From: Candidatus Magasanikiibacteriota bacterium
Lineage (GTDB): Bacteria > Patescibacteriota > Patescibacteriia > Magasanikbacterales > UBA922
Reading direction: 5' to 3'
Assembly: GCA_018661775.1 (NCBI GenBank)
Contig: JABJHO010000014.1
Coordinates: 42,305-106,304, forward strand
DNA: 64,000 nucleotides
The notes beneath the pieces are model-generated. The model searched no databases. It had not been told where the DNA came from and worked only from the letters and a program-made list of their open reading frames with translations. Positions 2,549 through 53,875 of this stretch are shown here, one piece after another. Both the position numbers and the translations under genes were made by a program. Position 1 is the stretch's first letter; each line of letters starts with the position of its first letter.

Positions 2549-4252
2549 TTATAACTTTTTTATCATATATGTGCCAACTTTTCTGTAACCAAGTTTTCTA
2601 TAATACCCACGAACACCAACACCCGAGATTACCGCACTTTTTTGTATTCCTGCGTTTTGTATTATTTCTTCGGCCACTTTCATGAGTTTTTTACCAAACC
2701 CTTTGTGTTGCGATGCCTGTTGTCTTTTTTCTCCAATTTTTACGAGCTGACCGTACACATGAAGTTCACGAATAAATGCACAGTGTGAAATTTCTGGGAT
2801 GATTTGTACAACATCTTTACAATGCGCTTTACTAAGCCATACATGTTGTTCTTTTTCCTTTTTGCCGATGTTGTGCGGGATACGGAGTCGTAGGAATCCA
2901 TACACAGCTATACGTTTTGGATCCTCAAGCGTAATAAAGTATTCTGTGCCACCTACTGTTGAGTATGTGTCTACAAAGAGCTGTGGTATCGTGTTTTTTG
3001 GTATATTGTCTTGCTGTCTTGAAATCTCTCTGCACCGCAAGCAGACACATCGCGCATTAGTGTTGTGTAGCTCTTTTGTGAGAGATTCTCGTAGGTTGGT
3101 TATACTGTTTCCGTCTCTAATTTCGTTAGATGGGATATCACGAATAAGTCGAGAAATTCTACAGTATCGTGGTGTAGCTTTTTTCATTGCAAGTAGTGCT
3201 GCAAACAATGCTTTTTCTCCGTATGATTTGTATCTTCCTTCCTTAAACCATGCATAGAGTTCAGCGCTTTCAATGACGGTGTTTGGATAAATCTTTACCA
3301 TGTCTGGGCAAAGTGCTGGATCAGAAAATAGTGATTTGTACATGGTTACATCGTGTTCTGGCGTGGTTCCTGGTAGGTCTGGCATAAAATGGAGATCAAC
3401 TTTGAACCCTGCACAGCGAAGCATATACATTGCTTTCCTGAATTCATCCACAGAGTGCCCACGCTTAATCAGTGATAAAATTGCATCATCTGGCGCCTGA
3501 AGACCAAGCTCTATTCTTGTGCATCCCTGTTTTCGCATGTGGTAGAGTGTTTTTGGTGTGATACAGTCTGGTCTTGTTTCAAGTGTAATTCCTATTATCC
3601 TATGTTTTGCATACTCATTGTACCGTTGTTCTTTTTCTATGCGTTGTGTCAACTCCTCAAGTGGCCGCTTTTCCCAGTACAACTCTTTTGTGGGGGGTAT
3701 TTCTTTTCTTCGTGTGAGGTTGTTGCATGCATTAAAAGACTCCATAATATACCAGTATTGGTATTTTAAGGTATAGGCATTCCATGTACCACCTTTTGTG
3801 ATGTATTCAATTTTATCTACCGGATGCCCATTCTTCTCAAGCATTTCAATCCTTTTTTGCATTAGAAGGTATGGGTTGAAATCGAGCTTGAGTGAGCGAG
3901 CTGCAGCAGGTTCTGAAGCAATATAGCTTTTTGGCATGCGTACTTCTGTTGGGCAGTAGACACACTTGCCTGGGCAAGCATATGGTTTTACTAGTGAAGT
4001 GATTACGGCAATCCCTGATGTACTTCGTATACCAGCTTTCATACATAATTGCTCTAATGCTCTATTTTGTACTACTTTCTTGTCTTTTACCAATTTCTTG
4101 TAGACACCAAGTATGGCCCTGTTTGAGGGTTGTGATATGTGAAGTGCACTACACTCCTTTCTTCGTATATCATCAAACTCACCTTTTGTTTTGGGCTTTT
4201 TTTGAATAATGGCATGTATGATCTGTGTAATGTGTTGTGTTGTTTCAGACAT
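2549..4252 (-). CDS. Elp3-family tRNA uridine34 carboxymethyl-modifying enzyme (radical SAM + C-terminal GNAT acetyltransferase)
   Basis: 567 aa. Radical SAM cysteine cluster CPGKCVYCP, TRPDC elongator region, C-terminal GNAT (HVYGQLV...GFGKKLM...QNAGI). Architecture identical to archaeal and Dehalococcoides Elp3. Confidence 0.85.
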   Translation of the reverse strand: MSETTQHITQIIHAIIQKKPKTKGEFDDIRRKECSALHISQPSNRAILGVYKKLVKDKKVVQNRALEQLCMKAGIRSTSGIAVITSLVKPYACPGKCVYCPTEVRMPKSYIASEPAAARSLKLDFNPYLLMQKRIEMLEKNGHPVDKIEYITKGGTWNAYTLKYQYWYIMESFNACNNLTRRKEIPPTKELYWEKRPLEELTQRIEKEQRYNEYAKHRIIGITLETRPDCITPKTLYHMRKQGCTRIELGLQAPDDAILSLIKRGHSVDEFRKAMYMLRCAGFKVDLHFMPDLPGTTPEHDVTMYKSLFSDPALCPDMVKIYPNTVIESAELYAWFKEGRYKSYGEKALFAALLAMKKATPRYCRISRLIRDIPSNEIRDGNSITNLRESLTKELHNTNARCVCLRCREISRQQDNIPKNTIPQLFVDTYSTVGGTEYFITLEDPKRIAVYGFLRLRIPHNIGKKEKEQHVWLSKAHCKDVVQIIPEISHCAFIRELHVYGQLVKIGEKRQQASQHKGFGKKLMKVAEEIIQNAGIQKSAVISGVGVRGYYRKLGYRKVGTYMIKKL

Positions 4253-5008: not shown

Positions 5009-5893
5009 TTATTTTCCTGAAATAATACAGGTGGTTGGAGTGGTAATACTCCAACCACTTTTTTTTGCTTTTATGAGCCCTGCAACACTTAATGCTTCAT
5101 TTGGTGTCACGGACTCTTGCAATTCATCTTCTAGTATTTTCTGTGCAGCCGCTATGTCTTCGTCGCTCACTATCCAGCCACTTCCCTTTGTTGTGTTCAC
5201 TATTTCTGTCACATTACTTTTTCTGTGTGCAATACGATCTCCGATGCACGTTGCAAGAGATTCTTTGGTTGGGGTAAAGTCATGGTCAAAATGTTTTGCG
5301 ATTGGGTAACATGCTGTGGTTTGTACAACATGTACTTGGGTCGGTAAGGAGTTGTGTGTAATGTATTCTCCGATACCTTGTGCGGTGGTACCAGAAGATG
5401 TGGCGATAAATATGGCACCCATATCGTTGTGTTGAGTAATCTCTCTTGCTAAGGGGTAGTATGATCGCGGCGCTAATCCATCGGTTGATTGTCGGAGATA
5501 TGCTACCCCAGCCTCTTTTCCGGCCATAAAAGCATTTTGTTTTGGCTGATCCACCTGTGTAATTGTAATATTTCTGTCGGTGGCAAGATGTGTGAGTGTG
5601 TCTTTTTTTTGCTGAGGTATTCTTTTACCAATATACACACCAAGCGAAAGCAGGTTATTTGGATGTTTGGTATTATGTTCTTTAATTGCTAAAATAGCTG
5701 CAATAGCAGCATTTCCGGTTGATGATATGGCAAACTTTTTCGTATCGTTTTGTGTATATTCCCGGTGTATCATTTCTGGAATGACCCGTCCTTTGTGTGA
5801 TTGGTATGGGCTAAGATCCTCTCTTTTAAGAAAAAGAGACGGGATGTTGAGTTGTTTTGCTAATTCTGGATGTGAAGATTGTGGAGTATTCAT
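5009..5893 (-). CDS. PLP-dependent enzyme, tryptophan-synthase-beta (fold type II) superfamily, specific reaction unknown
   Basis: 294 aa. LKREDLSPYQSHKGR resembles the PALP lysine motif (SFKDR), and SSGTT replaces the glycine-rich phosphate loop. Too diverged to assign a reaction. Confidence 0.45.
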   Translation of the reverse strand: MNTPQSSHPELAKQLNIPSLFLKREDLSPYQSHKGRVIPEMIHREYTQNDTKKFAISSTGNAAIAAILAIKEHNTKHPNNLLSLGVYIGKRIPQQKKDTLTHLATDRNITITQVDQPKQNAFMAGKEAGVAYLRQSTDGLAPRSYYPLAREITQHNDMGAIFIATSSGTTAQGIGEYITHNSLPTQVHVVQTTACYPIAKHFDHDFTPTKESLATCIGDRIAHRKSNVTEIVNTTKGSGWIVSDEDIAAAQKILEDELQESVTPNEALSVAGLIKAKKSGWSITTPTTCIISGK

Positions 5894-5976: not shown

Positions 5977-6141
5977 ATGAATCTTACCTGTATTGAGTGT
6001 AAAAATCAAGTTGATCTATCATCGTATTCTGACCTTGCTATGGACAGTGTGGTTGAGTGTCAGACGTGTGGCATAACATTGCTTGTGACGAGTATCGACG
6101 ATAACACCGTGTCTGTTGAAATAATGGACGAGGGAAAATAG
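5977..6141 (+). CDS. small Cys4 zinc-ribbon protein, LysW-like amino-group carrier candidate (Trm112-like alternative)
   Basis: CIEC-x18-CQTCGITLLV followed by acidic tail (DDNTVSVEIMDEG). Pattern matches LysW CPECG...CxDCGAELEV...acidic C-terminus. Tool ORF starts at 5911. Small ORF, may not be expressed. Confidence 0.3.
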   Translation: MNLTCIECKNQVDLSSYSDLAMDSVVECQTCGITLLVTSIDDNTVSVEIMDEGK

Positions 6142-6142
6142 A

Positions 6143-7537
6143 TTAGGTTATTGCTTTGCACACCATTTCTATCATACCCCGAAAACCGTGAGACCCAAGG
6201 AAGACTATTACGTCTTCTTTTTTGGTATGTTCAATAAGGTGTGTCACAAGTTCATTATCGTCTTCTATGTATTTTGTGTTTGGGTGTGTGGTCTCAATCA
6301 TGTCGGATAATGCTTTCCCATCCATGATTTCTGGTGTATTTGGCCCTTGTTTAACCGCGCTTAACCGAGGAATAATAACACTGTCTGCATGTGCAAATGC
6401 ATGAGCGTATTGCGGAACTGCTTCTTTATTTCGGTTTCCGGTGTTTGGTTCGTAAATGGCAATAATCTTGCCTGTATATATAGACCGCAATGTAGCAAGT
6501 GTTGCAGCTGCTTTTTCTGGAGAATGCGCAATATCATCAAACACGGTTATATTGTTTTCACACCGTTTTTCTAGTCGTCGTCTCATGCCCAAAAAAGTGC
6601 GTATGGATTGTGTGATGTTTTGTGGTTGTATACCAAGTTCACTAGCCATAGCAAATGCACCGCAAATATTTTCTACCATATATGTTCCAAGTAGTGGTGA
6701 GGTGATACTGTACGTAGAACTGTTATGGATTATGTCAAAATGAAGGCCATTTTTTGTACTAGTTATGTTGGTGTAGGAATACTCATTTTCTCCATCTTTT
6801 CCATAAAATACTACACGAGATTGAGATTGTTTTGCATATTCTTTTACATTTTTTCCATCTTTGCATGCAACAATAAGGCCATTTTTTGGCACAAGAGAAA
6901 CGAGGTGCTCAAATTGCTTCATGTATAATGCTTCTGTTGGGTACAGGTCTGCGTGGTCCCAAGAAATTGAAGTAAGCAGTAAATGAGTGGGGGAGTACAA
7001 CATAAACTTTGGTCGAGCATCCCATCGAGCTGTTTTATATTCATCTCCTTCAAGAACCGAATATGTACCATCAGTTATTGCTGCTGACGGGAAATTATGT
7101 GTAGCAAGTCCACCAAACATGTAGCTTGGCATATACTCATTTTCTTTGAGTATCCAAGACACTAAGGCAGATGTAGTTGTTTTTCCAAAGTTTCCGGCAC
7201 ACACAATAGAATGTTCTTTAACGAGAAATTCTGCGACAAATTCTGGATACGATTTGTATGCAATGTTGTTTTCTTGTACGTAGAGAAATTCCGGATTGGT
7301 GGAAGACGCGACATTTCCCACAATTACCAGATCAGGATTACCATGTTTGGTCATTTTTTCTACGTGCCAACCAGGGTAGTAGGTAATTCCGGCATTTTTG
7401 AGATGAGTAGAAACAGGCGGGTAAAACCCTTTGTCACTGCCAGTAACGGTATATCCTGTTTTGTGGAGCGCAATGGCTAGGGCGCTCATGGCTACGCCAC
7501 AAATACCTATAAAATGGATATGTTCGGTGTTGTTCAT
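6143..7537 (-). CDS. mpl: Mur ligase, Mpl-type (UDP-MurNAc:L-Ala-gamma-D-Glu-DAP murein peptide ligase) or MurC-like
   Basis: 464 aa, co-linear with E. coli Mpl: HFIGICG, GSDKGFYPPVST, PDLVIVGN, GNFGKTTT, EGDEY, DDIAHSP, YEPNTGNR. Confidence 0.8.
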   Translation of the reverse strand: MNNTEHIHFIGICGVAMSALAIALHKTGYTVTGSDKGFYPPVSTHLKNAGITYYPGWHVEKMTKHGNPDLVIVGNVASSTNPEFLYVQENNIAYKSYPEFVAEFLVKEHSIVCAGNFGKTTTSALVSWILKENEYMPSYMFGGLATHNFPSAAITDGTYSVLEGDEYKTARWDARPKFMLYSPTHLLLTSISWDHADLYPTEALYMKQFEHLVSLVPKNGLIVACKDGKNVKEYAKQSQSRVVFYGKDGENEYSYTNITSTKNGLHFDIIHNSSTYSITSPLLGTYMVENICGAFAMASELGIQPQNITQSIRTFLGMRRRLEKRCENNITVFDDIAHSPEKAAATLATLRSIYTGKIIAIYEPNTGNRNKEAVPQYAHAFAHADSVIIPRLSAVKQGPNTPEIMDGKALSDMIETTHPNTKYIEDDNELVTHLIEHTKKEDVIVFLGSHGFRGMIEMVCKAIT

Positions 7538-7540
7538 AAT

Positions 7541-8233
7541 CTATAGTGTATTATCCAGTATATGCTTAAGCTCTTGCAAATCACCACTCCAATTCTTTCC
7601 GTCAAACCACTCGAGCCCGCTAAACTGTAATTTATACGTGTCACTTGGTCTTTGTGCTGAACCTAAATATATATATTTTTTTCCTGTTTCTTTTGCATAT
7701 AGTATGGCTTTGAGCATCATGCCCATACCAATGCTTTTGTTGGGAAAATCTAATGGATAAAAAGGATAGGAATAGTGAAGTATGTCAGTATTTTCATAGC
7801 AGACTGCATACCCAACTACGTCATCACTTTTTGTATACAGAAGGAGCATGGTAAAGTTTGTTTCTTCTGCGTTTGTAAGACATGATTTTACCGCATTGGC
7901 AGAAAATGTCCCTTTGCCAAACTTTTTTTCATAAAAATCTTTTGCACATTTTCCAATAGTCCAGTGGTAATCAGTATACGGAATAGGGTGGCTGGAAAGA
8001 GTAATATCTTCTGTTTTCCGTAAAATTCTTCTGTTTTCGCTTGTTAATACAAACGTATTCAAATCTATTCGTATACTTCGTGTTTGGTCCATTGCGCCTT
8101 TTCCTCGGCGGGTAAACACAAAACCATCGCTATATTTTTGGGTAATATTGTTTGAAACAGTATGTGTAAGTGTTTCTTGTTTCCAGGAAAAATAATCATT
8201 CATAGAATTATTGTAGTGCAATCCATAGTCCAA
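7541..8233 (-). CDS. Bpt/ATE-family aminoacyl-tRNA--protein transferase-like protein (ATE_N without Cys + ATE_C GNAT-like domain)
   Basis: 230 aa. N-terminal FTRRGKG...IRIDL...S.NRRILRK resembles ATE_N. C-terminal VGYAVCY...SIGMGMMLKAILYAKETGKKYIYLGS...YKLQF..LE matches the ATE_C consensus (SavY..SLG...YlYLGY...YK..F.P.E). Confidence 0.55.
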   Translation of the reverse strand: MDYGLHYNNSMNDYFSWKQETLTHTVSNNITQKYSDGFVFTRRGKGAMDQTRSIRIDLNTFVLTSENRRILRKTEDITLSSHPIPYTDYHWTIGKCAKDFYEKKFGKGTFSANAVKSCLTNAEETNFTMLLLYTKSDDVVGYAVCYENTDILHYSYPFYPLDFPNKSIGMGMMLKAILYAKETGKKYIYLGSAQRPSDTYKLQFSGLEWFDGKNWSGDLQELKHILDNTL

Positions 8234-9356
8234 GTAATACGACCATTGCGTGGATAATCCAAAAACGCATCACTGTTTTTTCTTCACTCCAACCGCGCAT
8301 TTCAAAATGGTGATGTAGTGGTGCCATTGCAAAAATACGTCTTCCCAATATGTATCGCCCAAAAATTTGTATAATGACACTGGCAAGTTCTACATAAAAA
8401 ATAAAACCAAGCAGCGGAAGAAGTAGCATGTGATTAATGACAATGGTGTTTATGGCAAGAAGTGACCCAAGACCAAGAGAGCCAACATCACCCATTTGGA
8501 ACCGCGCAGGCTTAATATTGAAATACGTGTACGTAAGCAACGCACCGGTTGTGGTCGCATTGAGTATGGCAATTTCTCCATATCCTTCTATCCAGCTTAA
8601 TATTGTGAGAGCAGAAAATGTAATAATGAGTGCTCCTCCTGCCAATCCATCCATACCGTCTGCCATATTTACTGCATTGGCAGTTGCCACGACAAAGAAT
8701 ATAACAAAGGGAATAATAAGCCAGCTAATGTCTATTGTTCCATCAAACGGAATGGCTATGTTTTGCCAATGCTTTCCAAGTTTTGCATAAATCCACCAGG
8801 CAGCAATGCCACCCGCAATACATTCAGTGAGTAATCTTTCGTGAACATGGAGCCCTTTTCCTGGATGTGAACCCAGCCAAAGTGACGTACGTTTAAAAAT
8901 TGACCACGGAAGGGTAATAATAAGCCAGATTCTATACCATATATTTTTGTGTACCTTAATGAGTGTAAAAATCTGCTTCAATTTTCTGTTTCGTCGTTTT
9001 TTCTCATTAAAAATATTGAGCCAGTCATCTACGCCACCAAGGATTGCCGAAAGAATCATAACCCCAACAGGTACCCAGGTAAAACTTCTCTCCCAGTTAA
9101 AGAGTATGGTAATAACCGCAACAGTTATAATGACGAGCAGTCCACCCATAATTGGTACGCCAGCTTTACTTTTTCGTGCGCCCATGGCAAGTGATGCGTC
9201 ATAATCTGGGTTTCTTACAATATTATGTTTATACAAAAAAGCAATCAGGAGTGGAGCCCAAATAAAAGATGCTATTGTGGCAAGTGCGCCAAAACCTATG
9301 GCGGTCTGTAATATGTGTATTGTGTCTGTAGGTATTATCATAATACTGTTCATCAT
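8208..9356 (-). CDS. mraY: phospho-N-acetylmuramoyl-pentapeptide transferase
   Basis: 382 aa polytopic membrane protein with NAVNMADGMDGLAGG and APLHHHFE MraY signatures. Confidence 0.85.
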   Translation of the reverse strand: MMNSIMIIPTDTIHILQTAIGFGALATIASFIWAPLLIAFLYKHNIVRNPDYDASLAMGARKSKAGVPIMGGLLVIITVAVITILFNWERSFTWVPVGVMILSAILGGVDDWLNIFNEKKRRNRKLKQIFTLIKVHKNIWYRIWLIITLPWSIFKRTSLWLGSHPGKGLHVHERLLTECIAGGIAAWWIYAKLGKHWQNIAIPFDGTIDISWLIIPFVIFFVVATANAVNMADGMDGLAGGALIITFSALTILSWIEGYGEIAILNATTTGALLTYTYFNIKPARFQMGDVGSLGLGSLLAINTIVINHMLLLPLLGFIFYVELASVIIQIFGRYILGRRIFAMAPLHHHFEMRGWSEEKTVMRFWIIHAMVVLLGLWIALQ

Positions 9357-9399
9357 AGCATAGAATACATACTATTTCAAGCTATGGGCTAAATATTTT

Positions 9400-10176
9400 T
9401 TATGTTATTAATCTGCGAATTTCTAAGATTTTTGCGCTTTTTGCACGGCCAAATGTTTCATTTGCTTCACCTATTTTTTCATGCTCTTGCCAGGTCTGCT
9501 GTGATAGATCTTTTTTTGTGTCTGTAACGGTAATGTTTCCCTGTCTAATACCATGATTGTATTTTCCATCTGCAAGCCACGCAAGACTGTGTGTATAATG
9601 AATTATTTTCGGTGCACCACCTTCGTAGTCTACTTGGTGCACAATAAGTATATGGTCAAGATCATGTCGTTTTCCTGTATCAAGCATAATAATGCAATCT
9701 CCAGGTTCTATAGTGTTAAGAGAGATCGTTTGGCTGTTTTTGTTGTCTGCCAAAACACGTACATTTGTATTTTCAATGGTGCGGAATTTTCTCACAAGCC
9801 GTCTCAATAGATTGTTGGTTTTTGGAAATGACAAACGTGTGTGCAATGGTTTTGTTGTTTGTGCAATCGTTTGGGCGTTGAGAATGTAATACGCAAGCCC
9901 CGAGCAGTCAATACCAATAGCATGATCTACAAGAAATTTTTTTACCTCTGTCTGAGAAAGTGTCGTAAGGTCAATATGTTTTTTTCTTGCAATAATTTCT
10001 ATTTCTTGCACAATATCTTCTACGGAACCTTTTCCTAAGTGCACACGCAAACCTGCCCGAACCTTTGTCTTTTTATTGTTCATGTACGGGCAAGCAACTG
10101 TGTGTTTTCCAATGGGCATGTGCAGATATGCTTCAATAATATCCATTGCTGGTTTCACTATTTTTTTTGTTGTCAT
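9400..10176 (-). CDS. cytoplasmic NlpC/P60-like (papain-fold Cys/His) hydrolase candidate
   Basis: 258 aa, no signal peptide. GIDCSGLAYYIL matches the NlpC/P60 catalytic Cys motif, and a downstream DHILIVHQV region supplies a candidate catalytic His. Confidence 0.4.
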   Translation of the reverse strand: MTTKKIVKPAMDIIEAYLHMPIGKHTVACPYMNNKKTKVRAGLRVHLGKGSVEDIVQEIEIIARKKHIDLTTLSQTEVKKFLVDHAIGIDCSGLAYYILNAQTIAQTTKPLHTRLSFPKTNNLLRRLVRKFRTIENTNVRVLADNKNSQTISLNTIEPGDCIIMLDTGKRHDLDHILIVHQVDYEGGAPKIIHYTHSLAWLADGKYNHGIRQGNITVTDTKKDLSQQTWQEHEKIGEANETFGRAKSAKILEIRRLIT

Positions 10177-11435
10177 AAAGCGTTTTCTATAATGGTTACA
10201 ATCTTTTTTCCGAGTGCATTATATACACCATGTTTTGTCATAATGCTTTCTTTAGACTGAATGCGTAACAGGTCAGACCCTAGTGTGGTGGTTGTGTACG
10301 GGATAACAGAGAGCCCAGCTTGCTCAAGTGCTTTTTTTGTTTGCGTTACGTCTATGTCTTGTGCGTCTTTTGTGAGCCTGAGAACAAGTTGTGCCCCACG
10401 TGTTACAGGAACAAGTTTGTGATCTTTTGTTTCAAGGTTTGCCAGTGCTGCGACATGCGCTTCAAACGTTGTCATGAGATTTTTTACCTGTTTTGCTATG
10501 GATTGTTGCTGTAAGTGTGATTCAAAAATAACAGAAGCTGGTTGCCTTGCATTAATCTCCAAAAGATATACGTTTCCTGTTTCTTCTTCTACGATAATGT
10601 CTATCCCAAAAGCCCCGCGCCATCCATCGTGTTGCATTTTTTTTCCAACTGCATGGGCTATTTCTTTACACTTCGCCTGTTGATCATATGAGAGTATGTC
10701 TTTTGGAAGACCCCAGTCATTGCCGATGGTGGCAAAAGGTTGGTCGGTAAAAGGAGAGAGCCCAGTAATTTGGTAACTCAATGATCCTGTGTGGATCGCA
10801 TCTTTTGAGACAACGCCGTTGCAAGTAAACGTGGGGCCGTTAATATAGGCCGACACTTTTACCGGTCTTTCGGGAAATGTTTTTTGGAGTTCTTGTAGTT
10901 GTATTTCGCTGTCTATTAATACTGTTCCACTTCCGGTGTGTCCCTGGTTAAATTGCAATACAAATGGTTCATAATTCCATGCAATGTTTTTGCATACATC
11001 TATGTGGTGAGGGGGAAGATGTGTAGTCATTGTACCAAGCCACGCAACTTGTGAAATTTTCTCTTCTATGTTGCTTGCTAGGTTGGTAAGCGGGTTAAGT
11101 AGTGGGATATTATGTGTCTTGCAAATCCGCTCTATTTTTTTTGTAGGTTTGTATACCATAATACCACCAAATGCGTTTTCACCACATTCTTTGGTTTTTT
11201 TTGCAATGTACGCGAGTGATTTTGGATGCTCAAGGAGTTGCCAAGAATCCAAAAGTGTAGTAGTGTCAATGAGTACAATGTGTGACCTTTCTTGGGCATA
11301 TGATTTGGCAAACTCGGTCACATTTGAGATAATAGAAAAATCAGAGATAGACATGTCCATCCCCGATGCTCGCTCAAAAGAGCGATTTACATATATAATG
11401 TGGTGATTTTTAAGCCACGTGAGTAATTTTTCCAT
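10173..11435 (-). CDS. ATP-grasp carboxylate-amine/peptide ligase (Ddl-like or side-chain ligase candidate)
   Basis: Core ATP-grasp signature GAFGIDIIVEEETGNVYLLEINARQ with a pre-ATP-grasp N-domain. Start taken at ATG 11435 (MEKLLTW) because the longer ORF overlaps murB upstream. The 4-nt overlap with the downstream gene implies an operon. Confidence 0.6.
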   Translation of the reverse strand: MEKLLTWLKNHHIIYVNRSFERASGMDMSISDFSIISNVTEFAKSYAQERSHIVLIDTTTLLDSWQLLEHPKSLAYIAKKTKECGENAFGGIMVYKPTKKIERICKTHNIPLLNPLTNLASNIEEKISQVAWLGTMTTHLPPHHIDVCKNIAWNYEPFVLQFNQGHTGSGTVLIDSEIQLQELQKTFPERPVKVSAYINGPTFTCNGVVSKDAIHTGSLSYQITGLSPFTDQPFATIGNDWGLPKDILSYDQQAKCKEIAHAVGKKMQHDGWRGAFGIDIIVEEETGNVYLLEINARQPASVIFESHLQQQSIAKQVKNLMTTFEAHVAALANLETKDHKLVPVTRGAQLVLRLTKDAQDIDVTQTKKALEQAGLSVIPYTTTTLGSDLLRIQSKESIMTKHGVYNALGKKIVTIIENAL

Positions 11436-11468: not shown

Positions 11469-12449
11469 TTGCAACCTTTGATATATTTTATGGATCCATT
11501 TTATACACAACTCAAAACCTACGGAAAAGTGCGATGTAATGAATCTTTGGCAAAGCATATTACGTATAAGATTGGTGGCCCTGCCAAGTATTTTGTGATT
11601 GTAAAAGATATGTCCCATCTCCAAGCGCTTTTGCAGTTTATTGACGGAGAAGGGGTAAAACGTATTATCTTGGGTGGAGGAAGTAATATATTATTTCCAG
11701 ATGAAGGTTTTGATGGGGTGGTAATACAGATTATTGATAAGACGTTCTCGATTTCTGGTCCCAAGGTGGAGGCAGTTGCAAGTGCACTGATGAAAGATAT
11801 TTCTGAGGCAACTGTTGCCGCAGGTTTGGCGGGTTTTGTTTGGGCAATTGGTGTTCCTGGAACTATAGCAGGTGCGTTGCGAGGTAATGCTGCGTATAAT
11901 GGGGTTGCAATGGGGGATGCTGTGTCCAGTGTGGAGGTGTACAGAGATGGAGAGGTGGTGCTGTTATCAAACCATGATTGTGTGTTTGGTCCAAAAGATT
12001 CAGTGTTTAAGCATAACAATGATGTGATTTTGCGTATTTGGCTTGCATTAAAAAAAGGAGAGAAGCAAAAGATTGCTCAAGAGGCAATGGAGAATATTTC
12101 ATATAGACAACGCACTCAGCCAGAAGGTAAAGGTTCAGCGGGTTGTGTATTTAAGAACATAGTTGTTGAAGAAAAAGATGTGGATAATTTTTTGGCAAAA
12201 TTTAATGATAAAAAAATACAGGAATGTATTACAAAATATCATAAAATTCCTGTTGGCCGTTTAATTGAATTACTTGGACTAAAGGGGACTGTTTCTGGGA
12301 ATGCACAGATTTCTGAGGTGCATGGTAATTTTGTGATTAATTTGGGCGGTGCAAGTGCAAAAGATGTGTGCATCTTAATTGAACTTATACGGGAAAACGT
12401 GTACAATACCTATGGGTTTGAATTAGAGGAGGAAATTCAAATTGTTTAA
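11469..12449 (+). CDS. murB: UDP-N-acetylenolpyruvoylglucosamine reductase
   Basis: FAD-binding N-terminus (ITYKIGGPAKYF), GGGSNIL motif, ~320 aa. TTG start at 11469 or ATG at 11490. Confidence 0.85.
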   Translation: MQPLIYFMDPFYTQLKTYGKVRCNESLAKHITYKIGGPAKYFVIVKDMSHLQALLQFIDGEGVKRIILGGGSNILFPDEGFDGVVIQIIDKTFSISGPKVEAVASALMKDISEATVAAGLAGFVWAIGVPGTIAGALRGNAAYNGVAMGDAVSSVEVYRDGEVVLLSNHDCVFGPKDSVFKHNNDVILRIWLALKKGEKQKIAQEAMENISYRQRTQPEGKGSAGCVFKNIVVEEKDVDNFLAKFNDKKIQECITKYHKIPVGRLIELLGLKGTVSGNAQISEVHGNFVINLGGASAKDVCILIELIRENVYNTYGFELEEEIQIV

Positions 12450-15817: not shown

Positions 15818-17854
15818 ATGAACAATCAAGAAGGGACAAAGCGCGTAAGAATGCGTTGGGGAATGGTAAGTATTACTATTTGTTTTTTGGCTATGCTCGG
15901 GTTTATATTCCCGAAGTATACAAATGTTGCTATTAACAATATTAATTCTTTGGCATATCTAGGATTACCAAACATATCGGAAGAGTCTTTTCGGTTGGGT
16001 CTAGATTTGCAAGGCGGTGCACATTTAATATATGAGGCAGACGTACAACACGTGGCAATCGAAGATCGTGCAACTGCAGTAGAAGGTGTGCGAGATGCGG
16101 TTGAGCGCCGAGTAAACGGGACGGGAGTTTCTGAACCAAATGTCCAAACAGCGCGTGTGGGTGAGGCATATAGGCTTATTGTTGATCTTCCAGGTATTGA
16201 AAATGTAAATGAAGCAATAAAACTTATAGGGGAGACACCGGTGCTAGAATTTAAGGAAGAAAATGATGTACCATCAAGGGAGCTTAATGAAGAAGAGAGA
16301 GAGTTAATAACACAAACAAATAGTACAGCAAAATCACGTTCAGAGGAGATAGCAGCCCGAGTGGCAGGTGGTGAGTCTTTTGAAGAGCTTGTTTCTGAGC
16401 TTTCTGAAGACACGATCACAAAAAATAATGGAGGGAGTTTGGGAAATGTTGAGGCAGGTCTGAGTATAACAGGCCCACTTTATGATTGGGCGAAGACTCA
16501 TGTGGATGGGGACATTTCTGAAACACCAATAGAAACAGAGCTGGGATATCACGTTGTAAAGCGCGGGAAAGATGGTGAGTCAAAAGAAAAAGTTTCAGCG
16601 AGCCATATACTAATCTGTTATTTTGGTGCACAGGGTTGTGAAGATGAAACATACACAAAAGAGTCGGCACTAGAAAAAGCACAAGAACTTTTTACTCAAG
16701 CAAATGCTGAAAATTTTGCTGATTTAGCAAAAGAATTTTCTACTGGACCAAGTAAGGGTGCGGGTGGGGACCTTGGTTCTTTTGGGCGCGGTATGATGAT
16801 ACCTGCGTTTGAAGAGGTAGTGTTTTCTGCAGAAGTGGGACAAATTGTAGGGCCAGTTGAAACTGATTTTGGGTATCATGTGATTTATAAGACCGATGTG
16901 GAGGAGGTTGCAACGTATGGCCTTGCTCATATTATGAGTAAAAAGCTAACAGAAAGAGAAGTTCTCCCACCGCAGGATTCATGGAAATCAACAGAGCTTT
17001 CCGGAAAACAACTTGAGCGGGCGGACGTTGCTATTGATCCGCAAACAGGTGCCGTACAAGTTTCTCTTGTTTTTGATAAGGAAGGAAAAAAACTATTTGA
17101 AGATATTACACGAAGAAACCTTAATAAACCTGTTGCAATCTTTTTAGATGGCTCTCCTATTAGTATACCAACAGTTCAGGCCGTCATCGGTGGAGGGGAG
17201 GCGGTGATTACTGGATCATTTACCATTCCAGAAGCAAAACTTTTATCTCAAAGACTTAATACGGGTGCATTACCTGTTCCTATTACTCTTGTATCCCAGC
17301 AGGCTATTGGTGCAAGTTTGGGGGCCGAATCACTGGTAAAGAGTTTGCATGCCGGAATAATTGCTATTATATTGGTAATGCTCTTTATGGTTCTGTATTA
17401 TAGATTACCAGGGGTACTGGCAGTTATTTCTTTAAGCATATATATTGTTGCTGCACTTGCTATTTTTAAATTAATAGGCGTGACATTGACACTAGCTGGA
17501 ATTGCTGGATTTATCCTCTCTATTGGTATGGCGGTTGATGCAAATGTACTGATTTTTGAAAGAATGAAGGAGGAGCTGCGCGAAGGGAAGAGTTTGAAAG
17601 TTGCGGTGGAAGAAGGGTTTGTGCGTGCGTGGACATCTATACGAGATGGAAATATTTCAACACTTATTACCTGTGTATTGTTGGTTGGGTTTGGTGCAAG
17701 TTTTGTTCAGGGGTTTGCTGCAACATTGTCAATTGGTATTTTATTGAGCATGTTTTCGGCGATTACCATTACACGATTGTTTTTGCGTGCAATAGTGCCA
17801 CTATTTTCTCGGTACGGCAATAGACTCTTTTTAGGATTTACTGAAAAAAAATAA
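15818..17854 (+). CDS. secD: protein-export membrane protein SecD with inserted tandem parvulin-type PPIase domains
   Basis: LGLDLQGG P1-domain start. Canonical P1 head (AIFLDG...ISIPTV...ITGSF) and six-TM C-terminus. Residues ~150-345 carry two parvulin signatures (GGSLG...ELGYHVV and SHILI...GGDLGSFGRGMMIPAFEEVVF...FGYHVIYK). Confidence 0.9.
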   Translation: MNNQEGTKRVRMRWGMVSITICFLAMLGFIFPKYTNVAINNINSLAYLGLPNISEESFRLGLDLQGGAHLIYEADVQHVAIEDRATAVEGVRDAVERRVNGTGVSEPNVQTARVGEAYRLIVDLPGIENVNEAIKLIGETPVLEFKEENDVPSRELNEEERELITQTNSTAKSRSEEIAARVAGGESFEELVSELSEDTITKNNGGSLGNVEAGLSITGPLYDWAKTHVDGDISETPIETELGYHVVKRGKDGESKEKVSASHILICYFGAQGCEDETYTKESALEKAQELFTQANAENFADLAKEFSTGPSKGAGGDLGSFGRGMMIPAFEEVVFSAEVGQIVGPVETDFGYHVIYKTDVEEVATYGLAHIMSKKLTEREVLPPQDSWKSTELSGKQLERADVAIDPQTGAVQVSLVFDKEGKKLFEDITRRNLNKPVAIFLDGSPISIPTVQAVIGGGEAVITGSFTIPEAKLLSQRLNTGALPVPITLVSQQAIGASLGAESLVKSLHAGIIAIILVMLFMVLYYRLPGVLAVISLSIYIVAALAIFKLIGVTLTLAGIAGFILSIGMAVDANVLIFERMKEELREGKSLKVAVEEGFVRAWTSIRDGNISTLITCVLLVGFGASFVQGFAATLSIGILLSMFSAITITRLFLRAIVPLFSRYGNRLFLGFTEKK

Positions 17855-31377: not shown

Positions 31378-32808
31378 ATGGAATTACACACATTATCAAT
31401 TGCCGAAGCAAGAAAAGGTTTGGATGACAAACAGTTTTCTTCTGTTGAGCTGACACAGGCGTGTTTGGAAAGAATTGCACAAAGAAATGATGAGATTAAT
31501 GCATTTATTACGGTTACCGAAGAGTTGGCACTTACAGAAGCACAAAAGGCTGACACAAGAATTGCACAAGGGGAGGTAGAAATGCTTACCGGTATTCCGT
31601 TTGGTGTAAAGGATGCTATTTGTGTGCAGGGGGTTCGTACTACTGGTGCAGCCAAGATTTTGGATAATTATACCGCGCCATATGAGGCAACCGTTATCAC
31701 GAGGATAAGAAAACAAGGTGCGGTACTTTTGGGAAAACAAAATTGTGATGGTTTTAGTCATGGGGCAAGCAATGAAAACTCCATGTATGGTCCGGTAAAA
31801 AATCCAATAGACACCACAAAAGTACCTGGTGGTTCTTCTGGTGGTTCAGCAGCTGCTGTTGCAGACAATCAATGCATATTTTCTATCGGAGGAGACACTG
31901 GCGGGTCCATTCGTCAGCCAGCAAGTTTGTGTGGTGTGGTTGGGATGAGACCAAGTTATGGGAGAAATTCTCGATATGGCATTATGGCTTTGGCAAGTTC
32001 TTTGGATGTAATAGGTCCTCTCACAAAAACGGTAGAAGATGCTGCGTTGCTTATGGAAATTATGGCTGGACATGACCCAAAAGATGCCACAACGGTGGTA
32101 GACCATATTCCTGACTATAGTAAAAAAAGTCAAACAGATGTTGCTGGCTTGAAGATAGGAGTGCCAAAAGAGTATTTTTCACAAGATGGTGTAGACCAAG
32201 AAGTGCAAGAACGTATATACCAAAATATAAAGTCATTAGAAAAGCAGGGGTGTACTGTAGTAGAAGTTTCTCTTCCACACACACGATACGCAATTGCAGC
32301 GTATTATGTTCTTATGTCTTCTGAGGACAGCTCAAATTTAGCACGGCTCGATGGTGTTCGGTATGGTGTGCGAGAGGCGCAAGATACGCTGTATAATACG
32401 TATAGCAACTCAAGAGCCGAAGGGTTTCCAGAAGAGGTAAAGCGTAGGATTATGATGGGAACGTATGTGCTGTCTGCTGGATACTATGAAGCGTATTACA
32501 AAAAAGCACAAAAAGTACGGACACTTATTGCACAGGATTTTGAGACTGTGTTCTCGCAAGTTGATGTACTTATTTCCGCAACCTCGCCATTTACTGCATT
32601 TGGGATTGGGGAAAAGTCACAAGATCCCCTTAGCATGTATCTTGCTGATGTTTTAGTGAGTCCAGCCTCTCTTGCTGGTGTGCCAGCACTATCTGTTCCA
32701 GTGGGTACTGCGAGTAATGGCTTACCGATTGGCTTGCAGGTGATCGGACCACGCCTTGGTGAGAGTTGTGTGTTGCAGGTTGGAAATAGTATTTTTAATA
32801 ACCAATAA
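31378..32808 (+). CDS. gatA: Asp/Glu-tRNA amidotransferase subunit A (amidase)
   Basis: Amidase signature GGSSGGSAAAVA, Ser-cisSer-Lys triad regions. 476 aa. Confidence 0.9.
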   Translation: MELHTLSIAEARKGLDDKQFSSVELTQACLERIAQRNDEINAFITVTEELALTEAQKADTRIAQGEVEMLTGIPFGVKDAICVQGVRTTGAAKILDNYTAPYEATVITRIRKQGAVLLGKQNCDGFSHGASNENSMYGPVKNPIDTTKVPGGSSGGSAAAVADNQCIFSIGGDTGGSIRQPASLCGVVGMRPSYGRNSRYGIMALASSLDVIGPLTKTVEDAALLMEIMAGHDPKDATTVVDHIPDYSKKSQTDVAGLKIGVPKEYFSQDGVDQEVQERIYQNIKSLEKQGCTVVEVSLPHTRYAIAAYYVLMSSEDSSNLARLDGVRYGVREAQDTLYNTYSNSRAEGFPEEVKRRIMMGTYVLSAGYYEAYYKKAQKVRTLIAQDFETVFSQVDVLISATSPFTAFGIGEKSQDPLSMYLADVLVSPASLAGVPALSVPVGTASNGLPIGLQVIGPRLGESCVLQVGNSIFNNQ

Positions 32809-32818
32809 TAATTATCGT

Positions 32819-34228
32819 ATGAAAAAAGCTGATATACAAAAAATGGAATCACAATCAAGGCAGTCTTTTACGTATGCAACGCATGATATTCAAGATTATC
32901 GACAGTCTTGGCGGATATTTCGTATTATGGCTGAATTTGTCGAAGGCTATTCCTTTCTTTCGACGCTAAAAAATGAAATTACTATTTTTGGATCAGCACG
33001 TTTTTCTCCAGATGATCCGTATTATATTATTGCCAGAGAATTAGGAAAGATGTTGGGAGAAAAAGGGCATACCATTATTACAGGCGGTGGTCCTGGTATT
33101 ATGGAAGCAGCAAATCGTGGGGCGCATGACGCTGGTGCAGAGTCTGTGGGGCTAAACATACAATTACCTTTTGAGCAGATACTCAATGCACATACAACCA
33201 AATCTGCATCATTTAATTATTTTTTTACACGCAAAGTAATGTTAACTTCACCTGCGACAGCATTTGTGTGTTTTCCTGGTGGTTTTGGTACAATGGATGA
33301 ATTTTTTGAGGTGGTAGATTTGTGTGAGCTTGGCATGATGCAGTCCGTGCCAATTGTCTTAGTTGGAAGTTCATACTGGAACCCACTTTTGGAATTTCTT
33401 CGAAAGAGTTGTTGCGCTACAGGTTCTATTACAGAAGAACAAATAGATAAAATACATGTTGTTGACACGGCAGAAGAAGCATATATATTGTTACAGGATG
33501 TTGAAGATCGGCCACATGACCCAAACATGGTATTGCATCAGTTTAGCCAAGATGGCAATATAGAGTGGAAGGTATTTAGGATAATGGCAGAACTGGTAGA
33601 AGGGTTTGAGTTTTTGGTAAACATGAAAGAAGATATTACGGTACTTGGAACAAAACACATACCAAAAGATTCGCATTATTATTCTGATGCAGAAAAACTT
33701 GGTAAACAGCTTGTTGATCACGGTTTTTCTGTGGTTACCGGTGGAAAATACGGTATTGCAGAGGCAGTAAACAAAGGTGCATATGAAGCGGGTGGTGCGT
33801 CATACGGACTTGGTATGGATGTTGGTGGGCATAGGGAGCTTAACCCATATCTTACGCAGTCAATGTTATTTCGTTTTGCGTTTACAAGAAAGCTTATTGT
33901 TACGGCACCATCGAAAGGGTTTGTATTTTTCCCAGGTGGGTTTAGTACGCTTCATCAGTTATTTGAAGTGCTTACACTTATTCAAACAAAGAAAATGGCA
34001 AAACGACCTATTATATTATACGACAGAGAATTTTGGCAACCATTGCATGAGTTTATTAAAACAACTATGGTGCATGACGTTGGGACAGTGTCGGATGAAG
34101 ACGATGAGTTGTATCAAATCGTAGACAGTGTGGAGGCTATACATAAAATACTTGGCGAGGCACCCGAAGAGTCAAAACAGTTTACGATGCATTGGGATGA
34201 CGAAACTGCAGCGCACTATAAGCAGTAA
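32819..34228 (+). CDS. tandem LOG-family (TIGR00730, cytokinin riboside 5'-monophosphate phosphoribohydrolase-like) protein
   Basis: Two Rossmann LOG modules: GGGPGIMEA...PGGFGTMDEFFEV and a degenerate second GGKYGIAEA...PGGFSTLHQLFEV. Start at ATG 32819. Confidence 0.7.
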   Translation: MKKADIQKMESQSRQSFTYATHDIQDYRQSWRIFRIMAEFVEGYSFLSTLKNEITIFGSARFSPDDPYYIIARELGKMLGEKGHTIITGGGPGIMEAANRGAHDAGAESVGLNIQLPFEQILNAHTTKSASFNYFFTRKVMLTSPATAFVCFPGGFGTMDEFFEVVDLCELGMMQSVPIVLVGSSYWNPLLEFLRKSCCATGSITEEQIDKIHVVDTAEEAYILLQDVEDRPHDPNMVLHQFSQDGNIEWKVFRIMAELVEGFEFLVNMKEDITVLGTKHIPKDSHYYSDAEKLGKQLVDHGFSVVTGGKYGIAEAVNKGAYEAGGASYGLGMDVGGHRELNPYLTQSMLFRFAFTRKLIVTAPSKGFVFFPGGFSTLHQLFEVLTLIQTKKMAKRPIILYDREFWQPLHEFIKTTMVHDVGTVSDEDDELYQIVDSVEAIHKILGEAPEESKQFTMHWDDETAAHYKQ

Positions 34229-34280: not shown

Positions 34281-34370
34281 GGAGAGATGGCAGAGTGGTC
34301 GAATGCGCAGCCTTGGAAAGGCTGTGTACGAGCAATCGTACCGCGGGTTCGAATCCCGCTCTCTCCGCCA
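34281..34370 (+). tRNA. tRNA-Ser (anticodon GGA), class II with long variable arm, CCA encoded
   Basis: Acceptor GGAGAGA/TCTCTCC, anticodon loop TTGGAAA, T-arm GCGGGTTCGAATCCCGC, ends GCCA. Confidence 0.8.
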
Positions 34371-34378
34371 ATATAAAA

Positions 34379-34466
34379 GGAGAGGTGCCGGAGTGGTTGA
34401 ACGGGGCGCTCTCGAAAAGCGTTGTCCGGTTTTCTCGGACCGCGGGTTCGAATCCCGCCCTCTCCG
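34379..34466 (+). tRNA. tRNA-Ser (anticodon CGA), class II with long variable arm, no encoded CCA
   Basis: Acceptor GGAGAGG/CCTCTCC, anticodon loop CTCGAAA, identical T-arm to upstream tRNA. Confidence 0.75.
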
Positions 34467-34627
34467 CGAATATACAAGAGGTTATGCGGTTTCGCTTCGT
34501 TTCACCCAAATTTTCACACACAGTGGTAAGTCCTTTTTAATTTTTTTTGGGAAATAAAAAACCGCCTCAACCTTTTTTGGTATGTTGGCGGTAAGTAGTT
34601 GGTTTGCTTAGTTCTAGCCTAGCAAAC

Positions 34628-51591: not shown

Positions 51592-51734
51592 GCAAAAGAG
51601 AGTTTTTTTGATTTTGCTTGTGGATAACATGAGTAAAAATATTGTACAGCACGAAAAATTGCGGTACAATGGGAAGAGGTGGGGAAAAGTGGGGATTGAG
51701 TACAATGCTTGTCTACTCATATTTCACTTTTGTT

Positions 51735-52166
51735 ATGTTTGTTGGCGAATATTCTCACAGTTTGGATACAAAAGGCCGTTTAGCCATACCTAAATTATTT
51801 AGGAGTGATCTTTTGGATGGTTTAGTGATAACACGAGGCATAGATGATTGTTTGTTTTTATACACAAAAACAGCATGGTCATCTGTGTCTGATTATATAT
51901 CACAACTTCCATTTTCAAAAGCACACGTTCGGGGTTTTGCCCGACTTATGTTGGCTGGCGCAACAAACCTTACTCTAGATAAACAGGGTAGGGTTTTGTT
52001 GCCCGAATATTTACGCATATATGCTCAGTTAGAAAAAGAGGTGGTGGTCGCAGGTTTGTGCAATCGCATTGAGATATGGAATAAAAAAGATTGGGAAGTT
52101 GCCTTGGACAGTGTGTTAACTGATAAACACAAAATAGCCGAGCAACTTGATACGTTGGGTTTATAA
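51735..52166 (+). CDS. mraZ: transcriptional regulator MraZ
   Basis: Duplicated DxKGRhxhP motifs (LDTKGRLAIP, LDKQGRVLLP). Start at ATG 51735 (MFVGEY). Confidence 0.85.
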   Translation: MFVGEYSHSLDTKGRLAIPKLFRSDLLDGLVITRGIDDCLFLYTKTAWSSVSDYISQLPFSKAHVRGFARLMLAGATNLTLDKQGRVLLPEYLRIYAQLEKEVVVAGLCNRIEIWNKKDWEVALDSVLTDKHKIAEQLDTLGL

Positions 52167-52178
52167 TTTTTTTACATT

Positions 52179-53413: not shown

Positions 53414-53516
53414 CTTCATGGTACAAAGTGCCTGCTTAGCCTCTTCTTATATATTCCCGTAATTGGGTTTTTTTGTTTTTTATGTTATCATACACCATAT
53501 ATATTTACGCACATAT

Positions 53517-53873: not shown

Positions 53874-53875
53874 CT

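Follow-up and report, generated by a model that had tools for sequence, protein, structure and literature searches.

We tentatively propose that a five-gene operon from a genome of Magasanikbacteria (Patescibacteria/CPR), i.e., of a tiny uncultured bacterium, constitutes a conserved cytoplasmic module for a modified peptidoglycan precursor, shared by Magasanikbacteria and related Patescibacteria, and that this module supplements the ordinary pathway without replacing it. Within the operon, an ATE/Bpt-type transferase probably decorates the stem peptide of the wall. It would most likely be an analogue of FemX recruited from another family, and the ATP-grasp and NlpC/P60-like proteins would most likely form a ligase/amidase couple, acting on substrates that we infer. 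Neither such an operon nor a peptidoglycan-decorating chemistry for the ATE/Bpt family is described in the literature searched. Moreover, to our knowledge, ATE/Bpt enzymes act only on protein N-termini, which counts against the decoration of peptidoglycan.

Operon layout in the window

The window, i.e., the whole stretch of 64,000 nucleotides analysed, indeed contains the five minus-strand ORFs delimited by an earlier sequence-only reading, with the coordinates and spacing described there (Table 1). From position 11435 to 6143, the genes encode the ATP-grasp, the P60-like protein, MraY, the ATE_C-like transferase and the MurC/Mpl-family ligase, with a 4-nt overlap between the first two and then gaps of 43, 4 and 3 nt. 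The families proposed for these products (ATP-grasp, NlpC/P60, MraY, ATE/Bpt and MurC/Mpl) hold. MraY carries the HHH motif (APLHHHFE), 12 hydrophobic segments and a basic insertion C-terminal to the DD motif. The divergent murB gene, located 54 nt from the operon and encoding 319 aa according to public gene callers, is a conserved neighbour in most Magasanikbacteria loci and is missing in loci L092 and L093. At 51.6-53.1 kb, mraZ-rsmH is followed by a Clp ATPase and a WecA-like GT4 and, as previously noted, by no mur or ftsI gene within the window.

Table 1. Genes of the operon and its conserved neighbours, with positions in the window
Product	Position	Strand	Supporting match or feature
Divergent fold-type II PLP enzyme, 294 aa	5009..5893	-	PALP 92 bits
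LysW-like zinc-ribbon protein, 54 aa	5977..6141	+	Zn_ribbon_LysW 30.7 bits (cut-off 27)
MurC/Mpl-family UDP-MurNAc ligase, 464 aa	6143..7537	-	All three Mur-ligase domains
ATE/Bpt-family aminoacyl-tRNA-dependent transferase homologue, 220 aa	7541..8203	-	ATE_C 33.6 (cut-off 25)
MraY (phospho-MurNAc-pentapeptide translocase)	8208..9356	-	TIGR00445 190.5 bits (cut-off 192.05); Glycos_transf_4 96 bits
NlpC/P60-superfamily cysteine amidase/peptidase, 258 aa	9400..10176	-	Conserved ~85-aa N-terminal subdomain
ATP-grasp amide ligase, 420 aa	10173..11435	-	ATP-grasp_3 24.7 bits (cut-off 23.2); PRK06524 54.8 bits
MurB (UDP-N-acetylenolpyruvoylglucosamine reductase)	11490..12449	+	TIGR00179 189.1 bits (cut-off 144.5); FAD_binding_4 + MurB_C

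The ligase and the canonical pathway

The ligase had been taken for an Mpl-type enzyme, and its signatures are of this type. The alignment displayed the Mpl-only 30-residue EY...DH segment with TARWDARPK (the (S/T)AxxDxRxK loop), the YPPVS motif (YPPxS) and a GIC-G start of the P-loop region, and the top PDB match was Psychrobacter Mpl 3hn7 (181.6 bits, vs. 143.8 bits for MurC). The same 30-residue spacing was found in all measurable members among the 150 nearest representatives. In the C-terminal domain, DDIAHSP and EPNTGNR match exactly neither the motifs of Mpl (DDFAHHP/EPRSNTM) nor those of MurC (DDYGHHP/QPHRYTR), but they are nearer to the former. Only H348 and R380 are kept among the L-Ala-contacting positions of H. 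influenzae MurC (Y346, H348, H376, R377 and R380). The protein is named Mpl in IMG, and PGAP labels its orthologues just 'Mur ligase family protein'. As judged from sequence, the Mpl-type signatures speak for a peptide-coupling enzyme more than for a plain MurC. However, the three-domain architecture and the place in a dcw-type gene order resemble MurC, and the NCBIfam scores are practically tied (mpl 272.6 and murC 272.0 bits), each under its equivalog cut-off, with the nearest neighbours falling in the same grey zone.

These Mpl-like features are compatible with a peptide-first route, in which the ligase would couple a preformed peptide, either imported from host wall turnover or repaired or assembled off-line, to UDP-MurNAc before the product goes to MraY. 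The P60-like protein would then trim imported stem peptides, like the cytoplasmic gamma-D-Glu-diamino-acid peptidase YkfC, and the ATP-grasp and ATE-type transferase would rebuild the missing residues (ATE/Bpt enzymes target N-terminal acidic residues, as D-Glu would be). The lack of most amino-acid synthesis in Patescibacteria is in line with this route, as is an LD-carboxypeptidase (Peptidase_S66) gene located about 1 kb from the ligase, although in one locus only (L007). In contrast, the cluster genes scanned included no recognisable AmpG/Opp-type importer, AmpD or NagZ, and stepwise synthesis exists in relatives. We consider this route unlikely.

Operon-carrying relatives encode a MurD-like ligase, MurE, MurF and an FtsI-type PBP nearby, so that the loss or replacement of the canonical mur set implied by the sequence-only reading is not supported; the families, the Mpl signature, the link to peptidoglycan and the cytoplasmic P60 of that reading are supported. 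The MurD-like ligase is found within 10 kb in relatives and only 1-2 genes from the MurC/Mpl-type ligase in one subclade. MurF lies directly upstream of mraY, behind the FtsI-type PBP, in another subclade. MurE (334.7 bits, above its cut-off) is also encoded; in L041, it is at most about 4 kb away from the ligase. In the 64 kb of the window itself, no murD, murE, murF or ddl was seen.

The transferase and its genomic partners

The transferase (220 aa from the M11 start used by public gene callers) is nearer to ATE1/Bpt than to FemX/MurM/FemABX in both sequence and structure: ATE1 is the best structural match of the predicted model (pLDDT 94), Pfam FemAB gives no match, and the Fem-type enzymes are longer (about 335-420 aa vs. 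about 220 aa). Its invariant Y190-K191 pair occupies the position of the catalytic motif described for KlAte1 (Y303-K304) and FemX (F304-K305) in PMC9351520, and a basic helix (residues 55-63, ENRRILRK) resembles the tRNA-binding alpha-3 helix of the same work. Compared to the Ate1/Bpt enzymes of the N-degron pathway, the protein displays neither an ATE_N match nor conserved cysteines, and consequently no C4 zinc finger, and its scores against the NCBIfam arginyltransferase models (26-64 bits) fall far under the cut-offs (170-358). No hydrophobic N-terminal segment was found.

Its genomic partners differ as well: instead of Clp components, it has MraY and a Mur ligase beside it, and in some cases it is fused to the latter. 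In a synteny survey of 80 related species, MraY was immediately upstream of the transferase in 71/71 species loci; downstream of it, the ligase was present in 65/65 loci. Adjacency alone remains weak evidence, because unrelated genes (secA, hpf and an Elp3-like gene) are also syntenic across Magasanikbacteria. The argument for a peptidoglycan link therefore rests on the fusions and on two loci with different flanks (L092 and L093), in which the cluster is kept although the flanking genes differ. Transferase::ligase single ORFs occur in L034, L076 and at least nine protein clusters, which share only 46-60% identity with the query; one of these clusters is present on 12 contigs. The invariant position and the recurrent fusion thus support the functional tie to peptidoglycan genes that had been suggested. 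Additional genes are found around the ligase, namely a NUDIX gene just after it in 26 loci (at a distance of up to about 100 nt in 23 cases) and extra RimK-like or YheCD-like ATP-grasp genes between it and the transferase (L046, L027 and L041).

The same locus could instead be read as a plain mraY-murC operon in which a minimal Bpt-type N-degron transferase acts on proteins, the ATP-grasp/P60 pair belongs to some other pathway, and co-location is due to inherited synteny alone. The Pfam ATE_C threshold passed by the protein, its structural match to ATE1, the ClpA/ClpB-type ATPase encoded in the window and the wider synteny of secA, hpf and the Elp3-like gene are all compatible with this. Nevertheless, the recurrence of diverged fusions, the survival of the cluster when its flanks change, the translational coupling of the transferase to mraY and the ligase (3-4 nt gaps), the missing ATE_N zinc finger and the low arginyltransferase scores speak against it; moreover, the ORF beside the Clp ATPase matched no Pfam family, hence no ClpS. 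We regard such an explanation as very unlikely.

The putative ATP-grasp/amidase couple and the proposed route

The ATP-grasp has three domains and is similar to PurK, PurT and L-amino-acid ligases; for a fused orthologue, the AF2 model (pLDDT 93.4) gave PurK, PurT, PurD, biotin carboxylase and L-amino-acid ligases as the top Foldseek matches. The P60-like protein of the window scores 18.3 against NLPC_P60, under the threshold of 23. The assignment stands despite this score because 18/33 orthologues match the model (best E-value 1.3e-7), C91 (in GIDCSG), H175 and H196 are invariant, and hhalign relates the protein to a MepS core with 91% probability; four orthologues also match the CHAP model. 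Neither protein of the pair has a hydrophobic N-terminal segment, and the P60-like one has no signal peptide, in agreement with the cytoplasmic location claimed for it. Many relatives encode the two proteins of the pair as a single fusion (58 ATP-grasp::P60 protein clusters), and ATP-grasp::NUDIX fusions exist in other protein clusters.

Two known systems are comparable. In glutathionylspermidine synthetase/amidase, an ATP-grasp-type synthetase and a CHAP/NlpC-P60-type amidase that hydrolyses the synthetase's own bond share one polypeptide, as in the fusions found here; however, the domain order is reversed, the operon ATP-grasp has no GSP_synth match, and the context is thiol or polyamine metabolism instead of peptidoglycan. 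Aslfm, the D-aspartate ligase of Enterococcus faecium, is an ATP-grasp that attaches a side-chain amino acid to UDP-MurNAc-pentapeptide and is paired with an aspartate racemase, the source of the D-amino acid. The logic is the same as that of the ATP-grasp and PLP enzyme reported here, but no sequence relationship was detected, the PLP partner is of fold-type II, and the operon ligase is coupled or fused to a cysteine amidase.

A Van-like or Ddl-like arm could also be considered, in which the ATP-grasp would be a non-orthologous dipeptide ligase (D-Ala-D-X for MurF), the P60-like protein a dipeptidase and the PLP enzyme a racemase supplying D-amino acids, with the transferase as a separate Fem-like step. 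The ddl gene often lies beside murB, as the ATP-grasp gene does here, the ATP-grasp weakly matches Ddl families (TIGR01205 16 bits, Ddl_archaea 24 bits), and racemases are among the matches of the PLP profile. An E. coli DdlB query revealed no canonical Ddl in the fetched loci (about 1.7 Mb), an absence that concerns these loci only. However, the structural neighbours of the ATP-grasp are not Ddl, the NUDIX fusions suggest a nucleotide-linked substrate and not a free dipeptide, and the pair is not near mraY in 8/58 species loci, including the MurF-bearing L061 and L062. This arm appears improbable to us.

In the supplementary module that we favor, MurB makes UDP-MurNAc, and the MurC/Mpl-type ligase, the sole MurC-like gene seen, would attach the first residue; in one subclade, it adjoins murD, and in another, it comes after murF, mraY and the transferase. 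MurD, MurE and MurF, encoded elsewhere, would complete the stem peptide. Given its fold, catalytic motif, position and fusions, the transferase would act in physical association with the ligase and move an amino acid from aminoacyl-tRNA to the stem peptide while the latter is nucleotide- or lipid-linked. The acceptor would be a free amine, in the simplest case that of the residue-3 side chain. The transferase would thus do the job of FemX/MurM, although it belongs to another branch of their fold superfamily. The ATP-grasp may form a further amide bond on a carboxylate or amine of the precursor, and the fused or translationally coupled amidase may hydrolyse the same bond type for editing or turnover; a nucleotide-linked substrate is suggested because a NUDIX hydrolase is attached to the ATP-grasp in many relatives. 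MraY would then load the decorated phospho-MurNAc-peptide onto the lipid carrier. The 8/58 species loci in which the ATP-grasp/P60 pair is not near mraY speak against this module too.

Two conserved members of the locus, the LysW-like zinc ribbon and the divergent PLP enzyme, had been overlooked by the earlier reading. They probably supply or present an unusual amino acid, although this is speculative, and a simple Fem-like model does not account for the LysW-like protein. Its CxxC...CxxCG zinc ribbon is equal in length to the LysW/ArgW carriers and has a conserved C-terminal tail, and ATP-grasp ligases are encoded close by (including RimK-type ones in L046 and L027). In contrast, the invariant tail reads (V/M)DEGK and not EDWGE, the main ATP-grasp is PurK-like and not LysX-like, and the cluster genes scanned included no recognisable homologue of LysZ, LysY, LysJ or LysK. 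The LysW-like gene, which converges on the ligase gene and diverges from the PLP gene, was present in 74/88 loci, including every locus with the PLP gene, at a start-to-start distance of 30-224 nt in 66/70, and it is kept in L089-L093. The PLP enzyme is closest to threonine synthase (60-67 bits in profile searches against PDB), followed by Ser/Thr dehydratases (40-50 bits) and serine and aspartate racemases (35-39 bits), and its gene lies downstream of the ligase in 70/82 loci, being retained in L092 and L093.

Gene cluster and its conservation in relatives

The five minus-strand genes are packed as the sequence-only reading had described them, with a 4-nt overlap at the first junction and gaps of 43, 4 and 3 nt at the following ones, and murB indeed lies divergently, 54 nt upstream of this operon. 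The same reading overlooked two conserved members of the cluster, a LysW-like ORF and a PLP enzyme, which are included in the table below. In the NCBI annotation, four of the five operon products are hypothetical and the fifth is named only as an ATP-grasp domain protein, and in the IMG annotation the ligase appears as Mpl and the transferase as leucyl-tRNA-protein transferase. Note that a scan for promoters and terminators returned the same counts as shuffled controls.

Members of the cluster, with their positions in the window and the basis of their assignment
Feature	Position	Strand	Basis or remark
ATP-grasp protein	10173-11435	-	Pfam/NCBIfam
NlpC/P60-like protein (258 aa)	9400-10176	-	motifs, Pfam counts, hhalign
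MraY	8208-9356	-	TIGR00445, HHH motif
ATE_C-type transferase (220 aa)	7541-8203	-	ATE_C; public gene callers start at M11
Mur ligase, three-domain	6143-7537	-	mpl/murC models
LysW-like zinc-ribbon ORF (54 aa)	5977-6141	+	PF21344
PLP enzyme, fold-type II, divergent	5009-5893	-	conserved cluster member

Relatives were sought in one genome per GTDB species, a set to which the window genome does not belong (its best match being 73% identical), and relatives of the transferase were found in at least 362 GTDB species, from which 80 loci were fetched (gene neighbourhoods named L0xx hereafter). MraY is encoded immediately upstream of the transferase in each of the 71 loci whose sequence extends far enough; the ligase lies downstream in 65 of 65, and the ATP-grasp/P60 pair upstream in 50 of 58. 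Synteny alone proves little, since unrelated neighbours (secA, hpf and an Elp3-like gene) are also common to most fetched loci. In the more distant L092 and L093, the flanks differ and the whole cluster is kept. In the window, the Elp3-type gene (2549-4252, minus strand) encodes a 567-aa protein with Radical_SAM and Radical_SAM_C domains and adjoins the cluster in many relatives; few bacteria are known to have an Elp3 homologue.

That the accessory enzymes share a pathway with the ligase and MraY is supported most strongly by gene fusions. A single ORF encodes both transferase and ligase in L034 and L076, and such transferase::ligase fusions make up at least 9 protein clusters whose identity to the query is only 46-60%; one of these clusters is present on 12 contigs from several samples. 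The ATP-grasp and P60-like proteins make up a single polypeptide in 58 clusters, and a NUDIX domain is found at the C-terminus of the ATP-grasp protein in L036:2130-3794 and similar genes. In addition, a gene for a NUDIX hydrolase of ~185 aa follows the ligase in 26 loci (including L006:12177-12737 and L041:12977-13534), and in 23 of them the distance does not exceed about 100 nt and is often a few nt; this gene is absent from the window's operon. Further ATP-grasp genes lie between transferase and ligase, either RimK-type (L046:9862-10776 and L027:1703-2560) or YheCD/TTL-type (L041:10647-11561).

The MraY of the window scores 190.5 bits against TIGR00445 (cut-off 192.05) and carries the canonical HHH motif. 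At residues ~105-165, after the DD motif, it has a basic insertion (NEKKRRNRKLKQ...) that splits the TIGR00445 match in two stretches; its orthologues are of similar length.

The transferase and its partner proteins

The transferase contains the ATE_C domain of GNAT fold (33.6 bits, cut-off 25), and the ATE_N domain was unmatched in the Pfam search. In KlAte1, ATE_N forms a C4 zinc finger from Cys23, Cys26, Cys95 and Cys96 (PMC9351520); among 26 members of the transferase family no Cys is invariant or nearly so, and thus this zinc finger is absent. Y190-K191, within a ...DTYKLQF motif, is invariant in the family alignment and matches, by motif position and not by residue-level superposition, the catalytic residues Y303-K304 of KlAte1 and F304-K305 of FemX (PMC9351520). 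Moreover, helix 55-63 (ENRRILRK) is basic in the AlphaFold model (pLDDT 94) and resembles the tRNA-binding helix of Ate1, also basic (PMC9351520). The fold and the catalytic Lys are common to the transferase and FemX; FemAB (PF02388) gave no match at E<=0.1, the sole other match being Acetyltransf_6 with 14.9 bits. Curated models of the bacterial arginyl/leucyl-transferases (NCBIfam PRK01305) gave 26-64 bits against cut-offs of 170-358, which were not passed, and the ATE_C-like profile returned only a weak GNAT match from the PDB. With its invariant Y190-K191, its basic helix and its lack of a zinc finger, the transferase is a minimal and divergent member of the ATE/Bpt branch and very probably retains the use of aminoacyl-tRNA. 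Its invariant position between mraY and the ligase gene, as well as the fusions with the ligase, suggest indirectly that it would transfer an amino acid from aminoacyl-tRNA to UDP-MurNAc-pentapeptide or lipid II.

The ATP-grasp protein passes the ATP-grasp_3 cut-off (24.7 bits for 23.2) and reaches 54.8 bits with PRK06524, below the cut-off. The P60-like protein of the window obtains 18.3 bits with NLPC_P60, under the gathering threshold of 23; among its orthologues, 18 of 33 match this family at E<=0.01 (best 1.3e-7), 4 match CHAP and 3 match Amidase_6. Three residues, C91 (in GIDCSG), H175 and H196, do not vary among 58 orthologues, and hhalign against a MepS core placed GIDCSG on the catalytic motif of MepS with 91% probability. 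In the model of an ATP-grasp::P60 fusion, the Cys motif precedes a helix (509-525) that is followed by a beta-sheet. The P60 domain was judged by motifs, Pfam counts and hhalign because Foldseek with this fusion model gave ATP-grasp neighbours only, and on these grounds the predicted membership of the 258-aa protein in the NlpC/P60 family holds. As had been noticed before, this protein has no signal peptide, an N-terminal hydrophobic segment being found in none of the soluble proteins of the cluster. Single-sequence searches of the PDB with the ATP-grasp, P60-like and PLP proteins yielded nothing useful.

The LysW-like ORF is convergent on the ligase gene and divergent from the PLP gene, which it accompanies in every locus having the latter, with start codons 30-224 nt apart in 66 of 70 loci. 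The encoded protein passes the Pfam zinc-ribbon model PF21344 (30.7 bits, cut-off 27) and scores 15.6-22.7 bits with the NCBIfam LysW models, under their cut-offs. Whereas the LysW carrier has an EDWGE tail ending in Glu, the LysW-like protein ends in (V/M)DEGK, which is invariant in 74 loci (conserved in 74/88), and the cluster genes that were scanned include no recognisable homologue of LysZ, LysY, LysJ or LysK. Among known enzymes, the PLP enzyme, of fold-type II, most resembles threonine synthase, Ser/Thr dehydratases and Ser/Asp racemases; its Lys lies within an SHKGR motif, and its membership of the cluster is kept despite differing flanks.

The Mur ligase and the canonical pathway

The ligase had been described as Mpl-type rather than as a clear MurC. 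It scores almost equally against the equivalog models of Mpl (TIGR01081, 272.6 bits, cut-off 388.7) and MurC (TIGR01082, 272.0 bits, cut-off 335.1) and passes neither. Das et al. reported for Mpl a loop, (S/T)AFFDKRSK after E-Y, that is missing from the MurC-F enzymes they compared (PMC3060825). The corresponding loop of the ligase, EYKTARWDARPK (EY-TARWDARPK), is ungapped against the Psychrobacter and Neisseria Mpl structures in HMMER alignments, and three MurC structures display a 7-residue deletion at this position. A YPPxS segment common to the ligase and both Mpl structures is deleted in the same three MurC structures, and the E...DH spacing is 30 residues in the ligase and Mpl versus 23 in MurC. 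Among the nearest 150 cluster representatives, drawn from 1.84 billion proteins, this spacing is exactly 30 in 102 of the 111 that could be measured and 29-36 in the other 9, the MurC-type value of 23 being observed in none of the 111. The Mpl-type label can thus be retained as a structural signature, made up of the loop, the YPPxS segment and the 30-residue spacing, for an enzyme that may add either L-Ala or a peptide.

The motifs GICGVAM, RRR, DDIAHSP and EPNTGNR of the ligase match only partially GI(C/G)GTFM, RR, FAHH and EPRSNT of Mpl. At the positions that bind L-Ala in H. influenzae MurC (Y346, H348, H376, R377 and R380; PMC3060825), the ligase has I, H, N, T and R, so that only two of the five are kept. 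Many of the 150 nearest representatives also score under both the mpl and murC curated cut-offs. The system also makes plain that MurC/Mpl-type ligases grade into one another, a continuum not resolved by present annotation models. A second MurC-type gene was found neither in the window nor in any fetched locus, using local HMMs and E. coli MurC from the PDB.

The idea that canonical mur functions are missing is not supported by the relatives, whose neighbourhoods (+/-10 kb around named proteins) were used for this check and which encode MurD-like, MurE, MurF and FtsI-type PBP proteins. Indeed, L041 has both the full operon and a MurE at 334.7 bits, over the curated cut-off, L061 and L062 display a dcw-like order (FtsI-type PBP, MurF, MraY, transferase, ligase), and a MurD-like ligase gene lies just past the PLP gene in 7 GTDB loci and in L089-L091. 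The 64-kb window holds no other Mur ligase, and searches with local HMMs and an E. coli DdlB sequence detected Ddl neither there nor in the fetched loci. As reported earlier, the mraZ-rsmH region (51642-57742, plus strand) carries none of the usual ftsI or mur genes. Downstream of mraZ and rsmH come a 136-aa ORF without family match, a ClpA/ClpB-type AAA+ ATPase (53783-56650), a WecA-like GT4 gene (56672-57742) and a DUF192 gene. This second GT4 gene was considered as the true MraY and rejected, since it scores 105 bits with WecA versus 58 with MraY. Ate1/Bpt enzymes act on N-terminal Asp/Glu of proteins and feed a ClpS/ClpAP N-degron pathway; in the window, the ORF adjoining the Clp ATPase matches no Pfam family, and thus not ClpS. 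A pseudomurein-like reading was also rejected, since the archaeal pMur, MraY_archaea and Ddl_archaea models score under their bacterial counterparts. Straight after the ligase in L049 (12120-13001, plus strand), a 293-aa ORF has a weak EPSP_synthase/MurA-family match in its C-terminus only; it could represent either a divergent MurA or part of a murA gene.

Possible role in wall-precursor synthesis

Altogether, the cluster fits an accessory module added onto normal precursor synthesis, in which the ATE-family enzyme would make a Fem-like, tRNA-dependent addition, the ligase/amidase couple would act on a nucleotide-linked intermediate, and the PLP enzyme and the LysW-like protein would provide an amino acid or present it. 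A role of the Mpl-type ligase in peptide coupling or salvage remains a serious rival. In peptide recycling, LdcA-type LD-carboxypeptidase is classically found together with Mpl, and in one relative an LdcA-like gene (Peptidase_S66, L007:13132-13929, minus strand) lies ~1 kb from the ligase.

A bolder variant, which we regard as improbable, is that the peptide is made first: the transferase and the ATP-grasp ligase(s) would build it off-line, the ATE-type enzyme using tRNA and the extension possibly taking place on the DEGK tail of the LysW-like protein, the P60-like amidase would free it, and the Mpl-type ligase would couple it en bloc to UDP-MurNAc. The pseudomurein and LysW pathways are nearer in logic to such a route, which would depend on a carrier protein and tRNA and yield a stem peptide or branch, than the classical MurC-F ladder is.

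No characterised tRNA-dependent step of peptidoglycan synthesis is known to be catalysed by enzymes outside the Fem family. The Fem fold superfamily includes the ATE/Bpt branch, to which the N-degron transferases of eukaryotes and bacteria belong. In the accessory module preferred here, a large group of Patescibacteria (the GTDB species counted above) seems to have taken this branch into its wall-precursor pathway, together with a ligase/amidase pair, a small LysW-like protein and a PLP enzyme. The literature searched contains no description of the operon, of a part played by any ATE-like enzyme in making peptidoglycan, or of LysW-like proteins in Patescibacteria. If true, this reading would predict that a major uncultured lineage has a novel stem-peptide chemistry, extend the ATE/Bpt family to a non-protein substrate and provide testable enzymes for organisms on whose cell wall few analyses exist.

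Elsewhere in the window, the SecD encoded at 15818-17854 (plus strand) has an insertion of two PPIC-type parvulin (rotamase) domains that separates SecD_1st from the P1 head, an architecture conserved in relatives. A 490-aa protein (32756-34228, plus strand) combines two LOG/'lysine decarboxylase'-type SLOG domains with a DprA-like segment, and after its gene come two tRNA-Ser genes in tandem, with anticodons GGA and CGA (34281-34467, plus strand).
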